DNA of 59,138 bases, filler included, from Nitrospinae bacterium RIFCSPLOWO2_12_FULL_45_22 (GTDB lineage Bacteria; 2-12-FULL-45-22), in assembly GCA_001803565.1 (NCBI GenBank). It is 6 parts of 6 records of this genome, joined end to end, with 100 filler letters (N's around TTAATTAATTAA, not from the genome) between each part and the next. Parts side by side here need not be neighbours in the genome. Positions count along the whole stretch, not along the records: positions 37,162 to 53,718 come from MHDQ01000258.1; 5 more parts are not named here. The stretch is one strand, 5' to 3'. Made by a program: the position numbers and the translations under genes. Below, in pieces: positions 35,671-59,117 of the stretch (position 1 is the stretch's first letter; the number at the start of each line of letters is the position of its first letter). The notes beneath the pieces were generated by a model that saw nothing but the letters and a program-made list of their open reading frames with translations, was not told where the DNA came from and searched no databases.

Positions 35671-36792
35671 TTAGCCCTCAAGGCTTTCCAGGAATGCCTG
35701 TACCCGCGTCTTCATCTGCCCCATACCAGCCATAGAATATTCCCGGTCTAGCCCTAAAATAGGCAACCCTAACTCGGCTAGATAGGCCTTAGCCATGGGG
35801 TAATAGACCCCATAAATATCACAGAATTTTATGGTTTCATAGATAGCCCCGGCTACCCGGAAGCGCTCTACCATCTCTTTCAAATGCCTTTTCCTGTTAG
35901 TATCAGGCCTGATCCGGGGACATGGGGCATTGGTCAGGTAACGTCTGGCTAATGCCCGGATAGGGTCTTGCTCCGGTACTACCGGGTTCCAGAAATACCG
36001 GGAGCCTACACAAAGATCATCGGCTACAATCAAGGCCCCTGACTCTTCTACTAGCTTCAGATAATCAGGATTATCCAGCTCACTACCCAGTACCATTAGC
36101 CTTATCCGATGGTCTGTATCTGCTTTTGGGGGAGAAATTTCTTTTAAAAATCCTTCCAGCAAGGCATTAAACTCTTCTTTAGGCATAATCATTGCCGCTT
36201 TTACTATTTCTAAAGTCTCGGCACCAGTGATGGGGGGAGTATCGGCTGTCCGCAGTTCATAGAGCTGGCGTAAGAGCTTTCGGGTCTGGTTATGCACTTC
36301 TATTGATTTATTTAGGGCCTCATCAGTGATGGTTTGTCCAGTAAAGCCCTCTACTTTTTCTTTGAAGCTCTTTAATTGCTGGGTATAGAAATCTAAGGTA
36401 GGATCGTCCACTTTATGGGGTAGACTGATTATATGGGTAAAAGGAGGTTTTATATACTGGCGCCAGACATCGAATAGCCTCCGGATATGGTCGCAGGTAT
36501 TGGCCACTACAAAACCATCAAGAAACGCATAATTGTTAGTTAGGGCCTCTTCCAGACAGCTCCGGACAAATGAACAGGCATTGGTATATAGATGAGCATC
36601 AGCCAACGGCGTCCGCTCGGCCCCACCCATAACCCGCACCGGCAGGATACCGGCAGAAGCCAGTATCTCTTCCGGTACATAGAGACACATCCAGCCTATA
36701 ATTTTCTGCCCCTGCCCCTGCCTCCCCTTTAAATTCCGGTATCTATTTACATAAGCTTCCCTAAATCTCTCCATCATCGCCCATCCTCCCAA
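35671..36792 (-). CDS. 2-hydroxyacyl-CoA dehydratase/benzoyl-CoA reductase-type subunit
   Basis: YVPEEI, CSFVRS, TCD..RR, DDLCVG.R, KFCD, TRVQAFLE; start uncertain. Confidence 0.88.
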   Translation of the reverse strand: MGGWAMMERFREAYVNRYRNLKGRQGQGQKIIGWMCLYVPEEILASAGILPVRVMGGAERTPLADAHLYTNACSFVRSCLEEALTNNYAFLDGFVVANTCDHIRRLFDVWRQYIKPPFTHIISLPHKVDDPTLDFYTQQLKSFKEKVEGFTGQTITDEALNKSIEVHNQTRKLLRQLYELRTADTPPITGAETLEIVKAAMIMPKEEFNALLEGFLKEISPPKADTDHRIRLMVLGSELDNPDYLKLVEESGALIVADDLCVGSRYFWNPVVPEQDPIRALARRYLTNAPCPRIRPDTNRKRHLKEMVERFRVAGAIYETIKFCDIYGVYYPMAKAYLAELGLPILGLDREYSMAGMGQMKTRVQAFLESLEG

Positions 36793-36916
36793 AGCTTGAT
36801 CCTAAAAATCTCTGTTAATGACAATATTTTAATATCTTTTTCCCCTTAAAATAGCTTTTCCTAATCTTACTGTCAATAAGAAATAATCTGGGGTTTCCCC
36901 AAAATTTTATTACTAA

Positions 36917-37061
36917 GAATCTGTCACAAAATAACTTGATCAATTGTATTGTATAGGAGTTTCCTTTTTTAGTGTAAGAAGAGGAGATATGGGGATGGTG
37001 GGGATAGGGAGATTTATATATAATTCTTTTTATCTCCAACATCTCCTTTATTCTCTTATCT
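36917..37061. mobile_element. MITE long form, truncated by contig end
   Basis: Near-identical to 30905-31049. Confidence 0.8.
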
Positions 37062-37162
37062 NNNNNNNNNNNNNNNNNNNNNNNNNNNNNNNNNNNNNNN
37101 NNNNNTTAATTAATTAANNNNNNNNNNNNNNNNNNNNNNNNNNNNNNNNNNNNNNNNNNNNC

Positions 37163-37348
37163 TTGCCTATAACCTATTCTTTAGAGGGTATGAGGTTAGC
37201 GCTACTTAAGGGTCATTCCCTAAATGCTTTATTGCCGAATCTGCTTGCTCTATCTATATTCACATTGGTGCTGCTACCCTTAAGTATCATGTCCTTCCAG
37301 TGGGCGGTAAGGAAAGCCAAGCTCCAGGGCACCCTTACGCATTATTAA
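37163..37348 (+). CDS. ABC-2 type permease C-terminus, truncated
   Basis: LPITYSLEGMRLALL, TM helix, AVRKAKLQGTLTHY. Confidence 0.75.
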   Translation: MPITYSLEGMRLALLKGHSLNALLPNLLALSIFTLVLLPLSIMSFQWAVRKAKLQGTLTHY

Positions 37349-37351
37349 TTT

Positions 37352-37457
37352 GGGTGTGGCTATTTTCTGTCACAAAAACCCGTAACTCAACCCTGGTTGA
37401 CCAATTAGGGCTAAAGCCCTGAGTTACACCTACTTATGACAAAGAATAGCCACACCC
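37352..37457. mobile_element. MITE with 9-bp TSD containing a REP-like palindrome (37382-37427)
   Basis: IR GGGTGTGGCTATT / AATAGCCACACCC; flanks TATTAATTT and TATTGATTT. Confidence 0.8.
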
Positions 37458-37582
37458 TATTGATTTCATTGAGGTTTGGCCATGTTGTTCAGTACCTTCC
37501 GTGGTAAAAATTAAGAAAAATGGGTAAAGGGGGGAAAGGAATGACCTTAAATACCAGGGATAAATGAAAAAAGGAGGGGATA

Positions 37583-37744
37583 ATGAATAAAAAATCAGAT
37601 AATAGCAAAAAAGATAGGAAGCACTATCATAAGCCTCAGCTAACCAGGATTAGATTGGTTATCGAGGAGGCAAGATGGGAAACCTGTAAACCTGCTCCTG
37701 ATTGTGTAAGTCACGGACCAATAACGCGTAATCCTGGGTCTTAG
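37583..37744 (+). CDS. Putative RiPP precursor, 53 aa: MNKKSDNSKKDRKHYHKPQLTRIRLVIEEARWETCKPAPDCVSHGPITRNPGS
   Basis: AAGGAGG RBS; YxKPxL RRE-type leader motif; stop 6 nt before the first enzyme gene; below the ORF-track cutoff. Confidence 0.85.
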   Translation: MNKKSDNSKKDRKHYHKPQLTRIRLVIEEARWETCKPAPDCVSHGPITRNPGS

Positions 37745-37750
37745 CTAATA

Positions 37751-38659
37751 TTGAAGGAATTAAAGCTAGAAATCGGTGGTATTACCATCCGGGTTGCCTC
37801 GGCTAAGAATCTGTATTTAAAGGTTGACCCGGCCCATGAGCTTTTCCTTGTTCAAGATACTCAATGCGATTTTATCTTGCAGGTAAATTCCCCCCCTGCC
37901 CCTAATTGGCAATCAAAAGAAGTAATCTATCTTTCTAAAGGACTGTGGAGCCTCTATCGTATTGAAGGGAAATTCTTAATTATCCTTTGCTCTCCAGCGC
38001 CGGGTTCTTTTCCTTACCAGGCCGTTATATTCGATGAAGGCCTTAAAGACGGTGAATTATACATCCAACCAACAAATAATTATTCTGTCTTCGATTTACC
38101 ACCCCCAACACTTACGACAACTCCCATATTGATTAACCCTTTTACCTATCCCCTGGAAGAGCTACTGATGGTTATGCTCCTCTCTAGGCGATCAGGATTA
38201 ATCATCCATGCCTGCGGAATTAACTATAATGGCCGGGGAATACTGTTTGCCGGTACCTCCGGGGCAGGAAAGAGTACTCTGGCTAATATCTGTGGGGGAA
38301 AAGATATGTCATTACTCAGTGATGACCGGATCATCGTGCGCTCGATTGGGGATCGTTTCTGGATGTATGGCACTCCCTGGCACGGAGATGCCAGGGCTTG
38401 TTCACCCGAGAGGGTACCCCTGGAGAAGATATATTTGCTAAGGCATGACTATGAGAACCAGATAGTCCCTTTGCCGATAATGGATGCAGCATCCAGGTTA
38501 CTTGTATGTTCTTTCCCTCCATTTTATGAAAAGAGGGGCATGGAAGATACCTTAGACCTTTTGGAGCGCCTGGTCAAACATGTAGCCGTTTTTGAATTAA
38601 GATTTGTCCCGGATGATAGTGTTCTAGCATCAATTAAGGATCATTTAAAAAATGAATGA
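37751..38659 (+). CDS. HPr-kinase-like P-loop protein, putative peptide kinase
   Basis: IHACG, GTSGAGKST Walker A, LSDDR, YGTPWHG. Confidence 0.8.
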   Translation: MKELKLEIGGITIRVASAKNLYLKVDPAHELFLVQDTQCDFILQVNSPPAPNWQSKEVIYLSKGLWSLYRIEGKFLIILCSPAPGSFPYQAVIFDEGLKDGELYIQPTNNYSVFDLPPPTLTTTPILINPFTYPLEELLMVMLLSRRSGLIIHACGINYNGRGILFAGTSGAGKSTLANICGGKDMSLLSDDRIIVRSIGDRFWMYGTPWHGDARACSPERVPLEKIYLLRHDYENQIVPLPIMDAASRLLVCSFPPFYEKRGMEDTLDLLERLVKHVAVFELRFVPDDSVLASIKDHLKNE

Positions 38660-39125
38660 ATTAGTTAGACCTGGTCAGGATGGGGCTATTATGGAGTTGG
38701 TGAAAGAGCTTCTATTAAATGGAAAAATGATCCGTGCCCGCACCGAAGGGAAAAGTATGTATCCCTGCATACGGGAAGGGGATTATGTTACTGTCAAACC
38801 TGTAAGGTATGAAGAAGCCAGGATAGGGGATATCCTGGCTTATGAGCGAGATCCGGGTATTCTCACGGCACACCGTCTACTCAGGAAAAATTCCTATCTC
38901 ATCACCAAAGGTGATGCTAATATAAGCCCCTTTTATGATCCGCCTATATCTCCGGAAGCCCTCCTGGGTAAGATAATAAAGATTGAACGTGCTGGAAGGG
39001 TAATCCAGATGGAAAAGCCGATCTACCGGATAAAGGGATATATCATTGCTTATCTCCTTATCTGCAGGGCAAAATATCTATATTATAAGGGATTAGGCAT
39101 GTGGTTTAACAATCTGGTATTATAG
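38652..39125 (+). CDS. S24/S26-family peptidase
   Basis: GKSMYPCIREGD, AHRL, ITKGDAN. Confidence 0.85.
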   Translation: MNELVRPGQDGAIMELVKELLLNGKMIRARTEGKSMYPCIREGDYVTVKPVRYEEARIGDILAYERDPGILTAHRLLRKNSYLITKGDANISPFYDPPISPEALLGKIIKIERAGRVIQMEKPIYRIKGYIIAYLLICRAKYLYYKGLGMWFNNLVL

Positions 39126-39134
39126 AGGGAATAT

Positions 39135-39428
39135 ATGTGCTATTTGGAAAAATGTTACCAGAAGGATCCAAATATTGTCTTTCGTAGGATAGCGGATGAG
39201 GTTATACTGGTACCCATCCGGCAGGATGTGGCCGACATGGAATCTATCTATACCTTGAATGAAGTAGGCTCTTTTATCTGGGAAATCATCGAAAGTCAAA
39301 GGACTGTCGCACAGATAAAGGAATTGATCATAGCGGAATTTGAAGTGGACCCGGAAACAGCTGAGTTTGACCTAATAGAGTTTCTGGTGCAATTGGAAGC
39401 GGCAGGGGTGCTTGAGGAGCTTAAGTAA
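39135..39428 (+). CDS. PqqD-family RiPP recognition element
   Basis: IVFRRIADEVILVP, YTLNEVGSFIWE, EFEVDPETAEFDLIEFL. Confidence 0.92.
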   Translation: MCYLEKCYQKDPNIVFRRIADEVILVPIRQDVADMESIYTLNEVGSFIWEIIESQRTVAQIKELIIAEFEVDPETAEFDLIEFLVQLEAAGVLEELK

Positions 39429-39454
39429 AGGGTATTCACAGGAAAATTTGTCAT

Positions 39455-40534
39455 ATGGGGTGTTCTCATCTTCCCGAAATAAAATATGCTGAGTTTAGCA
39501 GGCACCTGCATAAAAAGTCCATAGCGGAACGGATACCCCTTCATGGGACGATAGAGCTGACCTTTCGCTGCAATCTAAATTGTGTGCACTGTTATTGTCC
39601 CACACTTGGGCCACAAGATATAGAGAGAGAGCTCAATTATCAAGAGATTTGTCGGATCATAGATGATATGCTGGCCGAGGGTTGTCTCTGGTGGACAATC
39701 TCTGGTGGAGAGCCCCTGATCCGCGAAGATTTCCAGGACATTTATATTTATGCCAAGAAGAAGGGCTTATTAATAACACTGTTTACCAATGGGACCTTGA
39801 TTACTACCCAGGTGGCCGATTTTCTGGATGAGTGGCCCCCATTTCTGGTGGAGATTACCCTATATGGGATAACAAAAGAGGTCTATGAGTCTATTACTGG
39901 TATCCCGGGATCTTTTACGCAGTGCATGGAAGGGATCGAGCGTCTGCTGGCACGGAATATCCGCCTGAGATTGAAGACTGTGGTGCTGACCTTGAACCAA
40001 CACCAGCTCTATGATATCAAAAGATATGTGGAAAGTTTGGGAGTAGGGTTCCGGTACGACCCAATGATTAACCCAGGCCTGGATGGATCCAGTAGACCCA
40101 AAAATTATAGGCTAACACCGGAAGAAGTAGTGAACCTGGATCTGGCTGATGAAAAACGTCTCCAAAACTGGAAAGAGGTAATGGAGAAGTATAGGGATAG
40201 TCCTAAAGATAATCATCTTTACACCTGCGTAGCGGGATTAGATTCTTTTCATATAAACCCCTATGGGGATATGCAGTTATGCATAATGGTCCAGAGGCCT
40301 GTTTACAGTCTTCGCCAGGGTTCTTTTAAAGAGGGTTGGCATAAATTCTTACCCAGGCTCCGGGCACAAAGGCCCAAAGGTGACTATAAATGCCCTGGTT
40401 GTGAGAGAAGCTCCCTCTGTCATCAATGTCCTGCCTGGGCCCAACTGGAGAACCATGACCCAGAAACACCAGTGGAGTACCTCTGTCAGATTGCCCACCT
40501 CAGGGCTGAGGTCTTTGGTAAAGATTCACGGTAA
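39455..40534 (+). CDS. Radical SAM/SPASM peptide maturase
   Basis: CNLNCVHC, SGGEP, TNG; SPASM CVAG..INPYGDMQLC..CPGC...CHQC..C. Confidence 0.92.
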   Translation: MGCSHLPEIKYAEFSRHLHKKSIAERIPLHGTIELTFRCNLNCVHCYCPTLGPQDIERELNYQEICRIIDDMLAEGCLWWTISGGEPLIREDFQDIYIYAKKKGLLITLFTNGTLITTQVADFLDEWPPFLVEITLYGITKEVYESITGIPGSFTQCMEGIERLLARNIRLRLKTVVLTLNQHQLYDIKRYVESLGVGFRYDPMINPGLDGSSRPKNYRLTPEEVVNLDLADEKRLQNWKEVMEKYRDSPKDNHLYTCVAGLDSFHINPYGDMQLCIMVQRPVYSLRQGSFKEGWHKFLPRLRAQRPKGDYKCPGCERSSLCHQCPAWAQLENHDPETPVEYLCQIAHLRAEVFGKDSR

Positions 40535-40643
40535 CGTCAAAGTGATCCTGAGCAGCCCCTGTAACTCAACCCTTCAGGGTTGATCTGTCAAGGCTAAAGC
40601 CTTGAGTTACTCAATCGCTTTCTAAGATGACTTTGACGTGGCC
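40530..40643. mobile_element. MITE at the 3' end of the rSAM gene containing a REP-like palindrome (40561-40610)
   Basis: IR GGTAACGTCAAAGT / ACTTTGACGTGGCC; direct repeat TTTGGTAAAGATT at 40514 and 40644. Confidence 0.75.
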
Positions 40644-40783
40644 TTTGGTAAAGATTAATTTAGCTAAATAATATTCACCCGGCCATCACAGAAGGTGACT
40701 TTCGATGATAATTATCCTGGTATCCGGGGGAGGAATCATTTCGGTTCATGAGATGGCCCATGTTATAATCAGATGATCTTTTT

Positions 40784-42319
40784 ATGAAATTTGGCCTCAT
40801 CGGCAAAGCCGATAAGCTACTCGCCGATGAATCGGTGATTCGCAAGGAGGTGATAAAAAATGGGGTAAACGGAGCTTTTACGTCACTGTTAGTAATAGAT
40901 AATCCTCCCCTGGCTGAATTTGTCATAGATTTGATGGAGAATATGGGTTTTACAGTCAAACTCATATCCCCTTCTAAAGAGGGTACAGAAAGAATCAAGA
41001 ACACGGGGTTTGATCTGGTATTATTCGATAGCAATTGTATTAAAAATCGATATAGTTTGCTGAACTTATGCAAGGCTTCTGGAGAATCTCAAAAGGCTCC
41101 TGTAAGTATCCTTATGGCCGAGAGTCATGAATCGGGTCTGATCACGGAGATAATAAAGGCAGGGATATCTGGTATCATCATTAAGCCGATAAACCCAGAA
41201 GAGTTAGTAAGGGTATTGAATAACACCTGGGGAAGGGAGATATTCAGATTGAAGAGGGGGTTTTACGAAGATGAGCCGGAGGGCCGATGGGATTCAGGAC
41301 CAGTCCTCATTGGGAAAGCCCCCAGTTTTTTAGAGATAAAAGAGGTGGCCAGGAGGGTAAGCAACTCTGATCTCCCGATTCTCATATGCGGAGAGAGCGG
41401 TACCGGTAAGGAATTGTTGGCCAGATATACCCATGAGCATTCCGGGAGAAAAGGGAGGGGATTTTTACGGGTGAACTGTGCGGCTATCCCCCAAGACCTA
41501 CTGGAGAGTGAGCTCTTCGGTCATGAAAAAGGTGCCTATACAGGGGCTCACTCCTTCAAACCGGGTAAATTCGAGTTTGCTAATGGTGGGACCATGCTCC
41601 TGGACGAAGTAGGAGAGATACCCTTTAGCCTTCAGGCCAAGCTATTGCACGTACTTCAAGACGGGACTTTTGAGAGGCTCGGGTCTAATAAGCCCGCAAA
41701 GACTGATGTAAGGATTATGGCAGCAACCAATACAGACCTAAAGGTTGCTATTGAGGAGAATAGGTTCCGAAAGGATCTATTTTACAGGCTGAATACGGTA
41801 ACCTTTATCCTGCCCCCTTTAAGGGAGAGGATAGAAGATATACCCTTACTCCTCAATTATTTTATGGATCTCTATAGTAAAAGATACAAGCAGACCAAGG
41901 TGGACATCCCGGATGAAACGCTGGAGGTTTTTATGAATTACACCTGGCCGGGAAATGTGAGAGAGTTAGGGAATATAATCCGACAGATAGTGGTCATGCA
42001 GGGTGTGGAAATACCCCTGGCAAATATCAATAAATCTTTTGACAAAAGGCATATTCATAGGTTACAACTGATGGATTCCCTGTCCAGGGATGGGCCATTA
42101 GAGTCACACAATAATGGTATGGAGTGGCCCTCCCTGGCGGAGGCCACCCAGAAAGGCCGCCAAGAGACTGAAAAGGCCCTGATATTGAAGGCTCTCCAGC
42201 ATACCTGTTGGCATAAAAAATCAGCCGCAAAACTCCTCCGGATATCCTATAGGGCATTACTTTATAAGGTTAAGCAGTATGGGTTGGATAGTGGGGCAAG
42301 TTCCCGGCATAAACCATAA
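40784..42319 (+). CDS. Sigma54-dependent (NtrC/AtoC-like) regulator with a divergent receiver domain
   Basis: GESGTGKE, ESELFGHEKGAYTGA, LDEVGE, FRKDLFYRLN, WPGNVREL, Fis-type HTH; start uncertain. Confidence 0.92.
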   Translation: MKFGLIGKADKLLADESVIRKEVIKNGVNGAFTSLLVIDNPPLAEFVIDLMENMGFTVKLISPSKEGTERIKNTGFDLVLFDSNCIKNRYSLLNLCKASGESQKAPVSILMAESHESGLITEIIKAGISGIIIKPINPEELVRVLNNTWGREIFRLKRGFYEDEPEGRWDSGPVLIGKAPSFLEIKEVARRVSNSDLPILICGESGTGKELLARYTHEHSGRKGRGFLRVNCAAIPQDLLESELFGHEKGAYTGAHSFKPGKFEFANGGTMLLDEVGEIPFSLQAKLLHVLQDGTFERLGSNKPAKTDVRIMAATNTDLKVAIEENRFRKDLFYRLNTVTFILPPLRERIEDIPLLLNYFMDLYSKRYKQTKVDIPDETLEVFMNYTWPGNVRELGNIIRQIVVMQGVEIPLANINKSFDKRHIHRLQLMDSLSRDGPLESHNNGMEWPSLAEATQKGRQETEKALILKALQHTCWHKKSAAKLLRISYRALLYKVKQYGLDSGASSRHKP

Positions 42320-42345
42320 ACATTAACCGCGGAGAATAGAAGGGG

Positions 42346-42813
42346 TTGTGCAAAATGCTTGATAGAGAGACTAATACGCTAGAGAAGGAATATTTTAACT
42401 ACTGGCTGAATATAGAGATGAAGAGGGCCAAAAGGTATCAGTACTGTGTTAGCTTGCTTATGCTGGAAATCAACGGGAACTCGGAAGGGAAAGATTTGAG
42501 TGATATAATAGCTGCCCTGGATCTGGTTAGAAGTGAGATAAGGGAATTTGATATCATCGGGAGGCAGGATGTATCCAGATTCTCCCTACTTATTTCATAC
42601 ACAGATGAGAGAAGTACCTTTCTCGTGGGGGAGAGGATAAGGGGTCAGTTGCAAGCCCTTTTCCTTCCGCCCGGGCAGACAAGTGAGAAGGCCTTTTATT
42701 TAGGAGGCTGCTGCTACCCTACCCATGTGACCAGTTTCTCAGATATAATGGGAAAGGCCGGGCAGATGCTGGATGAGGCAAAAAAAACCGGTAAGAGACT
42801 TGTCCTTCCTTAA
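42346..42813 (+). CDS. Degenerate GGDEF-fold protein
   Basis: EMKRAKRY, SLLMLEI, IREFDIIGR then QDVSRF in place of GGDEF. Confidence 0.7.
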   Translation: MCKMLDRETNTLEKEYFNYWLNIEMKRAKRYQYCVSLLMLEINGNSEGKDLSDIIAALDLVRSEIREFDIIGRQDVSRFSLLISYTDERSTFLVGERIRGQLQALFLPPGQTSEKAFYLGGCCYPTHVTSFSDIMGKAGQMLDEAKKTGKRLVLP

Positions 42814-54148: not shown

Positions 54149-54190
54149 CAGATTAATTGATTGACTGTGGGTTTAATAATTGGTTTTCCT

Positions 54191-57100
54191 ATGCTACGAG
54201 TACCGGCTAGAAATGTTAAGCTTTTCTTTTTGCTACTATTAATGGTAGGGCTGATTTTCTTGTCCACCAGTCCGGGTTGGGCAGCAAGGATTAAAGCTAT
54301 AAATGTCATACCAGATCCCACGAAATATCGCGATTGGGCCAGAATGCCATCGCTAAATGATAAAGGGCAGATAGCCTTTATAGCTGGTATCTTTCAGGAT
54401 GCTTTTCCGGATAGAACCGATGTCTTATTCTATGATGGTAACACCTTTACTAACATTACCGCGGATATGGATATTAGTCCGCACGCGGCTAATAATTGGC
54501 CCAACAACCCTATCCTCAATAATTATGGCCAGATAGCCTTTCATAAGGGAGGCGATATCTATTTTTATGATGGTATCAGTATCAAGAATATTACCGGCAA
54601 ACTCGAGATAGAACCTTATGATCTTTATCTTTATAGCTATGTGCTTAATGATTCAGGTCAGATCGCTTTCCCAGCCACTTCTTCCGCTGGGTATGATGTC
54701 TATTTTTATGATGGGACCTCGATCATCAATATCACGGCTGATTTGGATATGGATGCTGGTGCCCCCAGTCTCAATGATAATGGCCAGATTGCCTTCCATG
54801 TCTATGGTGCCGCGGCTAATCATTGGGATATCTATTATTATGATGGCGTGACCCTTACCAATATTACCGCCAGTTTGGATATCTCTGCCTATTCACCCAT
54901 TATTAATAATAAAGGACAAATAGCCTTCCGGGGCCAGACCGGCGAGTCAGGGCATCATGATATCTACCTTTATGATAGCACGGGCATTATTAATATCACT
55001 GCCCAGGCAGGTATTTATCTTGATGCCGATTTTTACCATGCCCTTTGGTTAAATAATAATGGTCAATTGGTCTTTAACGGTACTGATAGGTTCTCGGACA
55101 AATGGCTCACGGATAAAACAGGGATCTATCTTTACGAGGGAACTGCCCTCACACACATCTCCTCTTACTCCAGTCGGCTTAGCCTGAATGACCGGGGTCA
55201 AATAGCCTTTTTCTCGTCGCAAGGACCGTTTCCCACTAATGTCTATTTTTATGATGGGAAGAGCATAGTTTATAGAGGTCCAGGAGGATGTTCAGAAGGC
55301 ATTATACACCTCAATAACAAAGCCCAGATAGTCTATGAGACACCGGCATGTACCTTTGGCCAATCGATCTATTTTTTTGATGGGACTTATAGCAGTAATA
55401 TCGTAGAATTGCCCAGATCAGCTAATCTCAGGATCAGCAAGGTAGTAGCCAATGAAAATAGTTTCTCAGCCGAGGACCCTGCCCTCAATGATCAGGGACA
55501 GATAGCCTTTGTGGGACAGGATCGTGGGGACTATTATAAAGATGTCTATCTCTATGAGGGAGATAAAATAACCAATATTACCGCGGATTTAAAGGTTCAT
55601 GCCCAGGCCCCGGCCATTAATAATAGCGGCCAGATAGCCTTTTTGGCTAGTGATTTTAACGCTCAGAAGCCTGATATTTATTTTTATAATGGTCAAAACC
55701 TTGAAAATATTACAGCCGATCTAAATATCTCAGTTAGCGGCCCCAGCCTCAATGATCTCGGTCAAATAGCCTTTCTAGGCTCTTACTCATACGGCAGCCC
55801 TGATCAGGGTTATAAACAGATTCATCATATATATTTTTATGATGGGTCCGAAGTGACCAATATGACGGCCAATTTAAATATTTCAGTGATATATAATTAT
55901 AGCATTGGCCTTAATAATAAAGGTCAGATTGCATTCTGGGCTCAGGATAGCTCTTCCGGCCGTAAGGATATTTATATTATGGATGGTACCAAACTCATCA
56001 ATATCACTTCCCGACTAAATGACGTAGAATTCAGCTACATGCCTGATGTTGATCTAAATGATCATGGCCAATTGACCTTTTCTGCTCATATACCGGCTTC
56101 TGGGAGGTATGGAGTTTATTTTTATGATGGGATTGCATTTAAATATACCCCTGCCCTTTCAGATCTTCCCATTGGCCGCCCAAATATCAACAACCAAGGT
56201 CAAGTTGCCTTCATTAGCTGGGATCAGCAGAATCCGCATGTTTATCTCTATGATAGGGATATATTGATTGATATTACTGCTAACTTAGAGGTTAAGTCCT
56301 TTAGGCTAAGTGGCTTGAGCTTAAACAATAAGGGTCAGGTAGCTATTGGTTATACACCTTACCCTTATGGGTATAATAAAAGTCAACAGGATATCGCCTT
56401 CTATGATGGGCAAAAGTTTATCAATATTACCCATAATGAAACTAAATATTGCCCTTGCTCTTCCCTTGACATTAATGATAAAGGTCAAACTGTATTTTCA
56501 GGAAGAGACTCTGCCGACAGAATAGCCCTCTATTTCTATGATGGGAGAGACTTTACCAATATTATTTCTGATAGCAATATTAGCCATTACTCTGCAACTC
56601 AGCTTTACCCCAGTTTGAATAATAAAGGTCAGGTTGCCTTTTCCACCCCACAATTTTATTTGCATGGCCCTTCTCCTAATGATATTTATTTCTACGATGG
56701 GAACATCCTTAAGCATATTACCGCCAATATGAGGCTATCAGTATCTCCTCCCAGCTTGAATAATAATGGCTGGATAGCCTTCTCGGGCGCTACCTGGGAT
56801 GAACATTGGAAGCAAATATCCAATATTTACCTTTATGATGGTAATACCCTTAAGAATCTTACCGCGGATTTAAGAATCTTGGCTAATCCACCCACCTGGG
56901 CTATTTCGCCCAGCCTCAATGATCGGGGTCAGATAGGATTTACAGTATATAAAAAGGATTACACCCGTTCAGATATCTACCTTTATGATGGGGAGAAGTT
57001 TAGCAATATTACCAGCCATTTGACCGTTTCTTCCTCAAATCCAAGCCTTAATAATAATGGACAGATAGCCTTTGAAGGTTTTGACGACGCCACTGGCCGC

Positions 57101-58429
57101 CGGGACATCTATCTTTATGATGGAAAGCAGATCACCAATATCACTGCCAAGCTAGCTTTTTCTACCTCATCGCCTGTACTGAATGATTATGGTCAGATAG
57201 CCTTTAAAAAATGGATTCGTGAAGCCACTGCCGTAGGGTCCCCTGCATATATAGTATTGCCGGCGGAAGAGGTCTATTTTTATAATGGCAGCAAGATCAT
57301 CGAGGTCATCCACCAGATAAAGGTAGACTATCTTGACCTTTCTTTGAATAATCAAGGCCAGATAGCCTTTAGTGATAAATATAATATCTATCTTGCTCAG
57401 CCTAATAAGTCACCTATAGCAGAGGCAAGTAATAATCAGAAGGTTGTCCCTGGCTCTACAGTAAAGCTGGATGGCTCAGGCAGTAGCGATCCGGAAGACG
57501 ATCCCCTCTCCTACTCGTGGTTCTTGGTGGCAAAGCCAGCGGGTAGTAATGCCTATCTAGCTGATCAGAATAAGTCAAGTCCTAGCTTATTAACCGATCT
57601 GGCAGGTATCTATGAAGTACAATTGGTAGTCGGTGACGGTATAGATGAGAGTGCTCCGGATAAAGTAATTATTACTGCGGTTGGTCCCAAACAAGGCCCC
57701 GTGGCTTATGGCGGCCCTGATCAGGTGGTATCTACTGGCTCTACCGTTATTCTTAATGGGGCTAATAGTTATAGCCCCAATGACGATGATCTAGTCTACA
57801 ACTGGTCCATTATCTCCAAACCGGATGATAGTAGGACCCCTCTGGCGAATGCGTATGGTGAAAAATGGGCCCTTATAGCGGATGCAGATGGTATCTATGA
57901 AGTACAGCTGATAGTCAGTAATGATCAATCAGTAAGTGAACCTGATACCGTGACCATCATTGCCCTGGGAAAAGGCGCAAAGATCAGAGTAGCCTCCAAT
58001 AAATCTCAATATATGCCGGGTGATACCCTCCAGCTATATATCTGGACCGGTAATGCCACCATAACGCCAGAAGTTAAAGCCGATGTCTTTATGGGAATCG
58101 GCTTCCCTAATGGCAGGCTCTATTTCTTTGACCCGGCCTTGAACCTGAAACCAGCTAACCCTACTGATCCAGGGAGCTTCATACCCTTTGCCCAGGGAGC
58201 TATCCTGACCTCCGGTTTCGTATTTCCCACCTCGGCCGAGATGAATGCCGACAGCGATGGCAACGGCAAGTTGGATACCTTTCGCCTCTTCTCGGTAACC
58301 CTGCCACCTAATTTACCCCTGGGTTCCTATTTTGCCTTCGCGGCTCTAGCCGAGCCGGGCACGGCCCAGACAGGTGCCCCCAAACTCATCGGGCAGGTCA
58401 GTATCGCCTCTTTTATTATTAGCCCTTAG
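54191..58429 (+). CDS. Large exported beta-propeller repeat protein with two PKD-like domains and a conserved C-terminal domain
   Basis: Signal peptide; 22 repeats of LN(D/N)xGQIAF...IYxYDG...NITA; V.LDGSGSSDP...YSW PKD-like units. Confidence 0.88.
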   Translation: MLRVPARNVKLFFLLLLMVGLIFLSTSPGWAARIKAINVIPDPTKYRDWARMPSLNDKGQIAFIAGIFQDAFPDRTDVLFYDGNTFTNITADMDISPHAANNWPNNPILNNYGQIAFHKGGDIYFYDGISIKNITGKLEIEPYDLYLYSYVLNDSGQIAFPATSSAGYDVYFYDGTSIINITADLDMDAGAPSLNDNGQIAFHVYGAAANHWDIYYYDGVTLTNITASLDISAYSPIINNKGQIAFRGQTGESGHHDIYLYDSTGIINITAQAGIYLDADFYHALWLNNNGQLVFNGTDRFSDKWLTDKTGIYLYEGTALTHISSYSSRLSLNDRGQIAFFSSQGPFPTNVYFYDGKSIVYRGPGGCSEGIIHLNNKAQIVYETPACTFGQSIYFFDGTYSSNIVELPRSANLRISKVVANENSFSAEDPALNDQGQIAFVGQDRGDYYKDVYLYEGDKITNITADLKVHAQAPAINNSGQIAFLASDFNAQKPDIYFYNGQNLENITADLNISVSGPSLNDLGQIAFLGSYSYGSPDQGYKQIHHIYFYDGSEVTNMTANLNISVIYNYSIGLNNKGQIAFWAQDSSSGRKDIYIMDGTKLINITSRLNDVEFSYMPDVDLNDHGQLTFSAHIPASGRYGVYFYDGIAFKYTPALSDLPIGRPNINNQGQVAFISWDQQNPHVYLYDRDILIDITANLEVKSFRLSGLSLNNKGQVAIGYTPYPYGYNKSQQDIAFYDGQKFINITHNETKYCPCSSLDINDKGQTVFSGRDSADRIALYFYDGRDFTNIISDSNISHYSATQLYPSLNNKGQVAFSTPQFYLHGPSPNDIYFYDGNILKHITANMRLSVSPPSLNNNGWIAFSGATWDEHWKQISNIYLYDGNTLKNLTADLRILANPPTWAISPSLNDRGQIGFTVYKKDYTRSDIYLYDGEKFSNITSHLTVSSSNPSLNNNGQIAFEGFDDATGRRDIYLYDGKQITNITAKLAFSTSSPVLNDYGQIAFKKWIREATAVGSPAYIVLPAEEVYFYNGSKIIEVIHQIKVDYLDLSLNNQGQIAFSDKYNIYLAQPNKSPIAEASNNQKVVPGSTVKLDGSGSSDPEDDPLSYSWFLVAKPAGSNAYLADQNKSSPSLLTDLAGIYEVQLVVGDGIDESAPDKVIITAVGPKQGPVAYGGPDQVVSTGSTVILNGANSYSPNDDDLVYNWSIISKPDDSRTPLANAYGEKWALIADADGIYEVQLIVSNDQSVSEPDTVTIIALGKGAKIRVASNKSQYMPGDTLQLYIWTGNATITPEVKADVFMGIGFPNGRLYFFDPALNLKPANPTDPGSFIPFAQGAILTSGFVFPTSAEMNADSDGNGKLDTFRLFSVTLPPNLPLGSYFAFAALAEPGTAQTGAPKLIGQVSIASFIISP

Positions 58430-58445
58430 CAACTTAAAAGAAGAA

Positions 58446-59117
58446 ATGAGCAATCTGAAGTCTAGCCAATTTATTTACGTCTGCTTAATTGCAACCCTGA
58501 TTCATCTAACTTGGTTTGGTTTAGCCTGGGCTAGTAGTTTTACTATTAGCCCTATATTCGATAACCTCAGTATCTTGGTCAGCTCCCCCTCGCTTAATAA
58601 CAGAGGGCAGATAGCTTATGTAGGTAGTAAAGAAAGTATGAGCAATCGAGGGGATATATATTTTTATGATGGCACTACCCTCACAAATATCACTACCAAG
58701 CTGGATCAATCGGCCTATTCCCCTATCCTTAACAATAAAGGCCAGATCGCCTTCAGGACCCTGGCCGGCGAAGGACGGTACGAGATCTATTTCTATAATG
58801 GTACCAGCCTTACCAAGATTAGCGATGCGGCAAAGATTTTTATCCATCCCGGTAACTATTATTACCTTACCTTTAATAATGCAGGACAGATAGCGTTTAT
58901 TGGCAGCAACCTGATTAATGATTCCTCAGACCTCTATTTTTATGATGGCTCCACCATCCACAATATTACCTCTGATTTAAATATCATCGTCTCTGCCCCA
59001 GATCTTAACGATAAAGGAGAGATAGCCTTTATAGGGGATAACAATGTCCTAGCTGCATACCCCTCTGACGAGAGTTCGAGCAATGACTTCTGTACAGAGA
59101 CGAATCCGCACAGGTAG
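58446..59117 (+). CDS. Third paralog of the beta-propeller protein, N-terminal part only
   Basis: Signal peptide (AWA-S) and 4 repeats; pattern breaks at about 59050. Confidence 0.75.
   Translation: MSNLKSSQFIYVCLIATLIHLTWFGLAWASSFTISPIFDNLSILVSSPSLNNRGQIAYVGSKESMSNRGDIYFYDGTTLTNITTKLDQSAYSPILNNKGQIAFRTLAGEGRYEIYFYNGTSLTKISDAAKIFIHPGNYYYLTFNNAGQIAFIGSNLINDSSDLYFYDGSTIHNITSDLNIIVSAPDLNDKGEIAFIGDNNVLAAYPSDESSSNDFCTETNPHR

Follow-up and report, generated by a model that had tools for sequence, protein, structure and literature searches.

A small open reading frame with HPr-kinase-like, signal-peptidase-like, PqqD-like and radical SAM neighbours as a putative peptide precursor in a Nitrospinae bacterium

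Described systems and the cassette in the window

In paeninodin-type lasso peptide clusters, a homologue of HPr kinase phosphorylates the linear precursor's C-terminal Ser on its side chain (PMC8498205, in the part of the article available), and the kinase inference of the initial annotation thus has a printed precedent. In the Bsf lasso system, the kinase requires a PqqD-like RiPP recognition element (RRE; RiPP, ribosomally produced, post-translationally modified peptide) and is inactive on the leaderless core, and lasso leaders bear YxxPxL at positions -17 to -12 (both from the available part of PMC10368454). Here we describe a 53-residue open reading frame (ORF) at 37583-37744 (+) of a 59,138-nt stretch of DNA from Nitrospinae bacterium RIFCSPLOWO2_12_FULL_45_22 (the whole stretch is called the window), which heads a cassette encoding a kinase-like protein, a peptidase, a PqqD-family protein and a radical S-adenosylmethionine (SAM) enzyme. 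With a probability of roughly 55%, we take it to be the precursor of a RiPP, a divergent two-Cys member of a large uncharacterised family, matured by the mechanism proposed below.

The ORF translates directly to MNKKSDNSKKDRKHYHKPQLTRIRLVIEEARWETCKPAPDCVSHGPITRNPGS followed by a stop codon, and an ORF scan of the window found no longer ORF overlapping 37583-37744. The translation agrees with the peptide reading and the numbering of the initial annotation (W32, C35, C41 and S53), in which W-x-x-C is W32-E-T-C35 and C-x5-C is C35-KPAPD-C41. The order in the window is precursor, P-loop protein with an HPr-kinase/phosphoenolpyruvate carboxykinase (PEPCK) fold, S26-type peptidase, PqqD chaperone and radical SAM/SPASM enzyme; the four enzyme genes lie on the strand of the precursor, and the spacers are short or negative. 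The features are as follows.

37573..37577, + strand: Shine-Dalgarno sequence GGAGG, read directly, 5 nt 5' of the ATG
37583..37744, + strand: putative precursor peptide gene, 53 amino acids and stop; ORF belonging to a 149-strong foreign small-ORF family
37583..37684, + strand: putative leader, residues 1-34, from column conservation; basic N-terminus, Y15-x-K17-P18-x-L20, L25 and E29-A30
37685..37741, + strand: residues 35-53, CKPAPDCVSHGPITRNPGS, as the putative core; C35-K36 is near-invariant, C41 is lineage-specific and the G52-S53 end is conserved
37751..38659, + strand: HPr-kinase/PEPCK-fold P-loop protein, 302 amino acids, putative peptide kinase (PF27840 'ScmC', motifs and fold)
38652..39125, + strand: S24/S26-clan peptidase, 157 amino acids, putative leader peptidase; its start overlaps the end of the kinase-like gene by 8 nt
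39135..39428, + strand: PqqD-family peptide chaperone (RRE), 97 amino acids (PqqD, E 7.7e-17)
39455..40534, + strand: radical SAM/SPASM enzyme, 359 amino acids (Radical_SAM, E 5e-19)

The cassette resembles the phosphorylated lasso systems (paeninodin and Bsf) in encoding an HPr-kinase homologue, in the terminal Ser of the precursor (S53), and in the YxxPxL of the leader (Y15-H-K-P18-Q-L20), which is accompanied by a discrete PqqD-like RRE. Given this leader motif, and given that the lasso chaperone model is the one that the PqqD protein matches best, the half of the cassette concerned with recognition and tailoring resembles lasso systems. Nonetheless, Pfam searches of the 45 ORFs scanned in the window and of the recurrent neighbours at related loci revealed neither an asparagine-synthetase-like cyclase nor a B2 transglutaminase-type protease; their place is taken by a SPASM radical SAM enzyme and an S26-type peptidase, and the core is Cys-based, without the Gly1...Asp/Glu ring pattern.

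The SynChlorMet system (ScmC, ScmD, ScmE and ScmF; TIGR04248-TIGR04251) likewise has SPASM radical SAM proteins together with an HprK-like protein and a homologue of PqqD, and the kinase-like protein of the window falls in PF27840. Nevertheless, the window proteins score far below the SynChlorMet cut-offs (24.7 against 125 bits for ScmC, 35.1 against 100 for ScmD, 77 against 400 for ScmE and 67.1 against 400 for ScmF), and the window has one radical SAM gene where SynChlorMet has two. A genuine ScmC (295 bits; the gene has a masked stretch) was found in genome G003 (G003:C1:953000-971000, locus L167, 6879-9846 on the minus strand) beside an S26 peptidase and an NTP_transf_5 nucleotidyltransferase, and it coexists in that genome with a window-type cassette (L056). 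At this ScmC locus, the precursor profile gave no match better than E 1.3; to our knowledge, the SynChlorMet precursor is unidentified. The pairing of kinase and nucleotidyltransferase there recalls the phosphoglycosylated lasso peptide pseudomycoidin. We also considered and set aside a small ORF beside a stand-alone ScmC-like gene in genome G001 (L166/L168), which is leader-like but matched at E 0.21, with genes for a radical SAM enzyme, a PqqD protein and a peptidase all missing from its surroundings.

As in sactipeptide and ranthipeptide systems (SkfB, AlbA and CteB), a SPASM/twitch radical SAM enzyme, here with CX3CX2C and seven SPASM Cys residues, is paired with a leader-bearing, Cys-containing peptide. 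In contrast to them, the RRE is a separate protein and not an N-terminal fusion, the scores are far below the cut-offs (AlbA 79 against 850, StsB 58 against 625, SkfB 55 against 300), and the kinase-like enzyme and S26 peptidase are obligatory partners in window-type cassettes. Mycofactocin and pyrroloquinoline quinone (PQQ) systems (MftA/B/C and PqqA/D/E) share the discrete PqqD-family chaperone and a SPASM radical SAM enzyme acting on a short peptide, and MftC and PqqE match the window enzyme partially; the scores are, however, below the cut-offs (109 against 265 and 67 against 381), no downstream cofactor-pathway genes occur among the 45 window ORFs scanned, and the hypervariable cores described below argue for a natural product and not a cofactor. 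Trp-crosslinked peptides of the streptide or triceptide type differ in that the present family has no conserved aromatic residue at the motif. Taken together, the cassette resembles a cross between the tailoring module of phosphorylated lasso systems and a radical SAM maturase of the sactipeptide/ranthipeptide type, and is a member of neither. A literature search, with supplements and most subscription journals outside its range, found no report linking an HPr-kinase homologue with a radical SAM peptide cassette or describing this cassette or its precursor; a paper on a methanogen thioether crosslink makes no mention of PqqD, HPr or a peptidase (PMC13692751).

The precursor family and its conserved positions

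A search of the protein collection with the precursor alone returned a sole match, one 98% identical protein, so that the family is apparent only through its genomic context. The kinase-like protein has 3,977 relatives in the protein collection at E <= 1e-3, and a profile built from 26 of them was searched in one-genome-per-species contigs and in metagenomes, where relatives are encoded at at least 529 genome-collection loci and 507 metagenome loci. We examined the best 80 of the 529 genome loci and the best 80 of the 507 metagenome loci, 160 in total; one of them (L081) is the DNA of the window itself and was left out of the foreign counts, which accordingly refer to 159 loci. The nearest relatives among these foreign loci are no more than 43-47% identical. 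From the 13,848 six-frame small ORFs of the 160 loci, a jackhmmer search seeded with the window peptide alone gathered 150 matches in 142 loci (L081 included), and all 150 lie on the strand of the kinase-like gene. A homologous small ORF stands just 5' of the kinase-like gene at 141 of the 159 foreign loci; in 138 of the 141 the match ends at most 300 nt from the start of that gene (median 87 nt), and this position is kept also in rearranged loci. At 13 of the 18 loci without a match, the kinase match begins no more than 301 nt from the contig end, so the precursor slot has been cut off there. Several loci have more than one precursor gene (two). Locus L024 (4809-5652, +) carries three tandem precursor-like ORFs with nearly identical leaders. 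Two of them break off shortly beyond the leader, and the core of the third has a single Cys and ends in P-V-S; decay or diversification of a precursor array might account for this.

Conservation was counted over 137 unique precursors of the foreign loci, with the junction Cys taken as position +1, after leaving out the window's own copy, seven duplicates, and five of the 149 foreign matches that were missed by the anchor pattern (L022, L144, L153 and the two shortened extra copies of L024). The conserved columns are listed below with the corresponding residue of the window peptide.

Position -20: Y in 128/133; window Y15
Position -18: K in 106/133; window K17
Position -17: P in 128/133; window P18
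Position -15: I, V or L in 127/135; window L20
Position -10: L in 127/136; window L25
Position -6: E in 125/137; window E29
Position -5: A in 116/137; window A30
Position -4: V in 108/137; window R31 (R in 0/137)
Position -3: L in 124/137; window W32 (W in 0/137)
Position +1: C in 136/137; window C35
Position +2: K in 135/137; window K36

The last residue is Ser in 123 of the 137 precursors and Thr in 12, with 98 ending in GS and 12 in GT. Among background small ORFs of 40-90 amino acids (n = 5,013), 14.6% end in Ser or Thr and 0.46% in GS. A profile of 41 precursors matched 1,323 gene-called proteins of the protein collection at E <= 1e-3, all of them unnamed or 'hypothetical' and none with a Pfam domain; in the best 120 of these, the last residue is Ser in 116 and Thr in four. 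No family of NCBIfam 20 or of the local Pfam matches any of the 41 precursors scanned, and the nearest named clusters, DUF5972 (0.80) and the lasso family Subterisin (0.79), had chance-level scores and were not used. Family, strand, position and end-residue bias thus confirm that the precursor ORF is more than a chance reading frame. The alignment of homologous precursors had been proposed as a test in the initial annotation, and, as expected there, YxKP, EE (counted here at its second E together with the A that follows), CK and the Ser at the end proved to be conserved.

Two further expectations fared differently. Trp32, suggested as a radical SAM substrate, aligns with a column that is mostly Leu and never Trp, which makes a conserved Trp crosslink unlikely; as far as the alignment can tell, Trp32 is not a family-wide modification site. 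Cys41 had been taken as the second conserved Cys, but it is not homologous to the usual one. The cores between the fixed points are hypervariable and rich in Gly, Ser and Thr, and in this respect, with variable sequence between fixed Cys residues, they are like natural-product precursors. Three Cys residues are found in 121 of the 137 cores, the typical end being C-x3-G-S; a spacing of 4-6 residues separates the last two Cys in 92 of the 131 cores having three or more Cys, and the last Cys is five residues from the end in 83 of 137 and six in 33 (five in 105 of the best 120 gene-called relatives). The window core has two Cys with five residues between them and 12 residues after the second. There are only four two-Cys relatives, of which two (L026 and L073) are window-like, with C-K-x5-C and a Pro-rich core. 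These two are not tree neighbours of the window (ranks 62 and 143 of 149 in the kinase tree, 29 and 60 of 105 in the radical SAM tree), indicating that the C-terminal Cys pair was lost more than once. Judging from the alignment, the leader, the Cys-Lys and the terminal Gly-Ser are what every version keeps (GS itself in 98/137).

The initial annotation placed cleavage near EEA. Conservation continues from there via A-V-L-x-x to the invariant C-K, and the leader/core junction may therefore be 1-5 residues downstream of EEA. Cleavage by signal peptidases follows the (-3,-1) rule, by which a site immediately ahead of the invariant Cys suits most relatives, with Leu at -3 and Gly or Ala at -1 in 85 of 137. 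A second candidate site, by lasso-like spacing from the Tyr, would be after R31.

A single contig from public run X2 (117 nt, depth 3.9; window 37644-37760) differs from the window at 37674, 37683, 37701, 37728 and 37730. Translated, the changes are R31I, T34I, D40G, R49H and N50H, all five non-synonymous, and they leave W32, C35, K36, C41, G52 and S53 intact. Record P0002 is a G52R variant that retains S53. The contig and the record hint at diversifying change in the window peptide, with the reservation that one low-depth contig may be erroneous.

The four enzymes and the candidate sites of their action

The 302-amino-acid kinase-like protein weakly matches Hpr_kinase_C of Pfam (E 6.4e-5) and HprK_rel_B of NCBIfam (E 2e-11), both covering the P-loop region only, and PF27840 (Pfam 38.1 'ScmC') is the precomputed label of this protein and of all 120 listed relatives. 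In an alignment with Lactobacillus casei HprK/P (1jb1), the catalytic His, the P-loop and the Asp-Asp of that enzyme correspond to H153, G168-x-S-G-A-G-K174-S and S190-D-D of the window protein, and these are invariant or nearly so in 26 homologues. The AF2 model (pLDDT 89.9) matches both domains of ATP-dependent PEPCK (240 aligned residues, Z 13.3, rmsd 4.9), and Foldseek gave E 7e-7 for PEPCK and E 3e-5 for HprK/P. From motifs and model, we read the protein as a putative active phosphotransferase. A predicted complex of this protein with the precursor (ipSAE 0.02 and 0.01, run without controls) counts neither way.

As a candidate target of this enzyme, Ser53 is well motivated by the conservation of the terminal residue. 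One alternative is that the protein does not phosphorylate Ser53, acting instead on an internal Ser or Thr (S43, T48), activating another group, or serving mainly as an ATP-driven partner or scaffold of the peptidase, with the terminal GS kept for some other reason, for instance because the radical SAM enzyme, the peptidase or an exporter recognises it. The genes for the kinase-like protein and the peptidase are indeed always adjacent, overlap in the window and are fused in one protein (P0098, 457 amino acids: a kinase-like PF27840 domain and a C-terminal Peptidase_S24 domain, PF00717), a natural fusion which supports the two proteins working together. The genuine ScmC of G003 likewise stands beside an S26 peptidase, a distant HprK-like/PqqD cassette has a peptide without terminal Ser, and over its whole length the fold of the protein matches PEPCK, which acts on small molecules, and not HprK/P only. 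We nevertheless regard this alternative as unlikely: Ser or Thr ends 135 of 137 precursors and 120 of 120 best gene-called relatives against the background of 14.6%, the internal Ser and Thr positions are not conserved, and the sole characterised peptide-directed HPr-kinase homologues, in the available part of PMC8498205, target exactly the C-terminal Ser.

The conserved distance of the last Cys from the end, together with the C-x3-G-S that also ends the peptide of a divergent paralogous cassette (L007), raises another possibility, namely that phosphorylation of the terminal Ser is an activation step, and that elimination gives a C-terminal dehydroalanine captured by a Cys (that of the typical C-x3-G-S; in the window perhaps Cys41) to form a lanthionine-like ring in addition to what the radical SAM enzyme does. 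In class II-IV lanthipeptides, phosphorylation and subsequent elimination are the established route. Genes for a lyase or a cyclase do not recur around the cassettes, however, the window peptide has no Cys near its C-terminus, and lasso kinases leave the phosphate in place (PMC8498205, available part); we consider this route very doubtful.

The 157-amino-acid peptidase matches Peptidase_S24 (E 1.3e-5) and approaches the archaeal-type signal peptidase I model TIGR02228 (E 1.3e-12; 47.8 bits, just below the cut-off of 51.85). G33, S35, M36, P38, H74, R75 and D88 are invariant in 104 sequences; we take these to be the Ser box (S-M-x-P), the His-Arg box and the Gly-Asp box, presumably in the Ser/His pattern of endoplasmic reticulum/archaeal-type signal peptidases. 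Reading the sequence by eye, we saw no hydrophobic or membrane segment N-terminal to the catalytic Ser, which argues for a cytoplasmic leader peptidase. The best NCBIfam match of the PqqD protein is the lasso-peptide PqqD chaperone NF033536 (E 7e-10, below the cut-off).

In the radical SAM enzyme, C39-x3-C43-x2-C46 and seven SPASM Cys (258, 276, 313, 316, 322, 325 and 344) are invariant in 28 sequences. Its AF2 model (pLDDT 92.8) has SuiB (Z 24.7), anSME (23.5), SkfB (23.3), CteB (22.7), PqqE (21.3) and EpeE (17) as structural neighbours, with SuiB, anSME, SkfB, ChlB, CteB and PqqE tied at Z 21-25; such tied scores suggest a peptide-modifying SPASM enzyme and say nothing on the bond made. The closest solved sequence is that of the thioether-forming SkfB (E 3e-13), and the NCBIfam scores, led by NirJ2 (115 bits) and followed by MftC, AlbA and PqqE (109, 79 and 67), are all well below the cut-offs. 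In fact, none of the five gene products attains the cut-off of any NCBIfam model, and alignments with homologues indicate that the catalytic motifs are intact in all four enzymes.

Cys35 is a well-motivated candidate for the radical SAM site on the conservation of the junction, and a thioether is favoured because the Cys is the fixed element and because SkfB is the closest solved sequence. We also weighed the possibility that the ORF is the precursor of this cassette and the enzyme makes no Cys thioether, the Cys residues being disulfide or metal ligands or recognition points, and the modification, possibly an epimerisation or a C-C bond, lying elsewhere (at Lys36 or at the C-terminal Gly-Ser, as with MftC). 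Together with a PqqD-like partner, MftC modifies MftA at its C-terminal residues. MftC is the second-best NCBIfam match here and spans nearly the whole protein (E 2e-31, residues 28-324), and the structural neighbours at equal Z include the non-thioether enzymes SuiB, anSME, PqqE and EpeE. Beyond the leader, moreover, the only fixed family positions in the window peptide are CK and the terminal GS, and two-Cys cores arose more than once, so that the C-terminal Cys pair is dispensable. On the other hand, Cys is the most conserved residue of the core (136/137), the fixed-spacing three-Cys pattern of 121/137 cores is typical of crosslinked scaffolds, the closest solved sequence is a thioether synthase, and the cores have no conserved aromatic or acidic acceptor pair for C-C chemistry. 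We hold a non-thioether modification to be rather improbable, with a chance that is not negligible.

Proposed maturation and the spread of the cassette

The proposed mechanism, for the precursor reading that we favour, would run as follows. The leader (about residues 1-31 or 1-34) would be held by the PqqD-like chaperone through a Y15-x-x-P18-x-L20...L25 strand, as in lasso peptides, and the SPASM radical SAM enzyme would modify the core at or beside the near-invariant Cys35-Lys36, most likely by a Cys-derived thioether crosslink, with Cys41 as a lineage-specific second site or a disulfide partner. The kinase-like protein would phosphorylate Ser53 on the linear precursor, and the Ser/His S26-type peptidase would take off the leader, probably immediately ahead of Cys35 or a few residues upstream. 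We infer leader capture and Ser53 phosphorylation by analogy with lasso systems, and action at or beside Cys35-Lys36 from the family alignment; the involvement of the peptidase in leader removal is suggested by the constant position of its gene beside the kinase-like gene and by the fusion in P0098.

Several observations weigh against this proposal. The closest relatives of the window enzymes are 43-50% identical, and the tree branches are long. The window core is atypical, lacking the C-terminal Cys pair of 121/137 relatives and having R-W for the usual V-L, and with W at -3 and T at -1 it is a poor fit to a signal-peptidase site. The radical SAM enzyme is about equally distant, by NCBIfam scores and Z, from enzymes of very different chemistry, and no transporter gene was found in the operon among the 45 window ORFs scanned. 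Finally, genome G006 has a distant cassette with an HprK-like gene, a PqqD gene and a leader-like peptide (precursor-profile E 0.0045) that ends in Cys, for which tblastn found no radical SAM gene; the kinase-like superfamily is thus not always tied to a terminal Ser. The atypical core and the long branches could also mean that the ORF arose by chance or has decayed to a remnant, and that the cassette of the window no longer makes a product. This we judge to be extremely improbable, as the ribosome-binding site is strong, the coupled operon is intact along with every catalytic motif, the peptide has kept its leader positions and CK...GS, the ORF is unchanged in contigs from two other public runs, X3 and X12 (the 3' part only in X12), and a 98% identical variant is on record.

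By record title, the loci span Chloroflexota, Omnitrophota, Desulfobacterota and other 'delta' groups, Acidobacteriota, Nitrospirota, Aminicenantes, WOR-3, KSB1, Myxococcota, Planctomycetes and one Methanosarcina; the title of the last (L062, one of the 80 genome loci) gives a strain and not a MAG. The cassette has been little studied because nearly all of the genome records are metagenome-assembled genomes (MAGs; 'MAG' opens 78 of the 80 titles). The usual order, PqqD-radical SAM-precursor-kinase-peptidase, was observed at 73 of the 159 loci, the remainder being mostly shortened by contig ends and consistent with the same order. The gene order of the window, which was seen at none of the 159 loci, is a circular permutation of the usual one.

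Genes recurring beside the cassettes at the 159 loci encode an ABC transporter ATPase (34), an ABC-2 permease (28), a Wzz/GNVR chain-length or tyrosine-kinase protein (14), Peptidase_C25 (14), Poly_export (10) and a GT4 glycosyltransferase (7), which suggests that the cassettes are often placed beside export and exopolysaccharide loci; none of these genes adjoins the cassette of the window. Two divergent paralogous cassettes adjoin typical ones or share a genome with them. In the first (L177, 8187-9731, -; identical to L031, 11013-12557, +), an HprK-like protein of 362 amino acids and a PqqD protein accompany a 41-residue peptide with a YxKP...PEAL leader that ends in Cys, and a radical SAM gene was not detected there. 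The second (L007, 51-2542, +) has the order radical SAM-precursor-HprK-peptidase-PqqD and a peptide with YxKP, a C-x3-G-S end, and C-S instead of C-K.

Around the cassette of the window, a long imperfect hairpin lies at 37345-37465 (+), about 120 nt 5' of the precursor ATG (arms 37352-37389 and 37420-37457, 38 nt, 79% complementary; RNA fold -49.7 kcal/mol, z -8.9 over 200 shuffles). No Rfam family matches the hairpin, its arm sequence is unique within the window, and it might serve in the regulation or processing of the operon. The Rfam scan of 37160-37800 gave no match at E <= 1, no sigma-54 promoter pattern was found 5' of the precursor (16 matches in the window against 21.9 expected), and the sigma-70 and terminator scans of 36700-41000 were at chance level. 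A run of N at 37062-37161 lies about 420 nt 5' of the precursor (472 N in the window). Directly 3' of the radical SAM gene, 40784-42813 (+) encodes a sigma-54-dependent response regulator (511 amino acids) and a short GGDEF protein (155 amino acids), and 54161-59117 (+) encodes a 1,422-amino-acid protein with DUF7453 and PKD domains followed, towards the window end, by a second DUF7453 ORF.

A more far-reaching and speculative idea, which we consider improbable, is that the cassette defines a new RiPP class of many uncultivated anaerobic phyla, in which a lasso-type module (the YxxPxL leader, PqqD and an HPr-kinase-like enzyme acting on the C-terminal Ser) is combined with a SPASM crosslinker and a cytoplasmic signal-peptidase-like leader peptidase, and in which phospho-Ser would be coupled to ring formation, either as the leaving group or by anchoring the Cys that lies five residues upstream. 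If this were true, the two-Cys peptide of the window would be a natural minimal variant separating the Cys-Lys junction chemistry from the C-terminal ring.

The 2023 review of RiPP leader proteases has zero occurrences of 'signal peptidase', S24, S26, SipW and LexA (PMC10885120), and the cassette offers two enzyme types not named there. It is common yet uncharacterised, and spread across uncultivated anaerobes. The conserved terminal Ser and junction Cys would point to the sites of enzyme action, and the family alignment leads to a concrete hypothesis on the key residues, which would be Cys35-Lys36 and Gly52-Ser53, and not Trp32.

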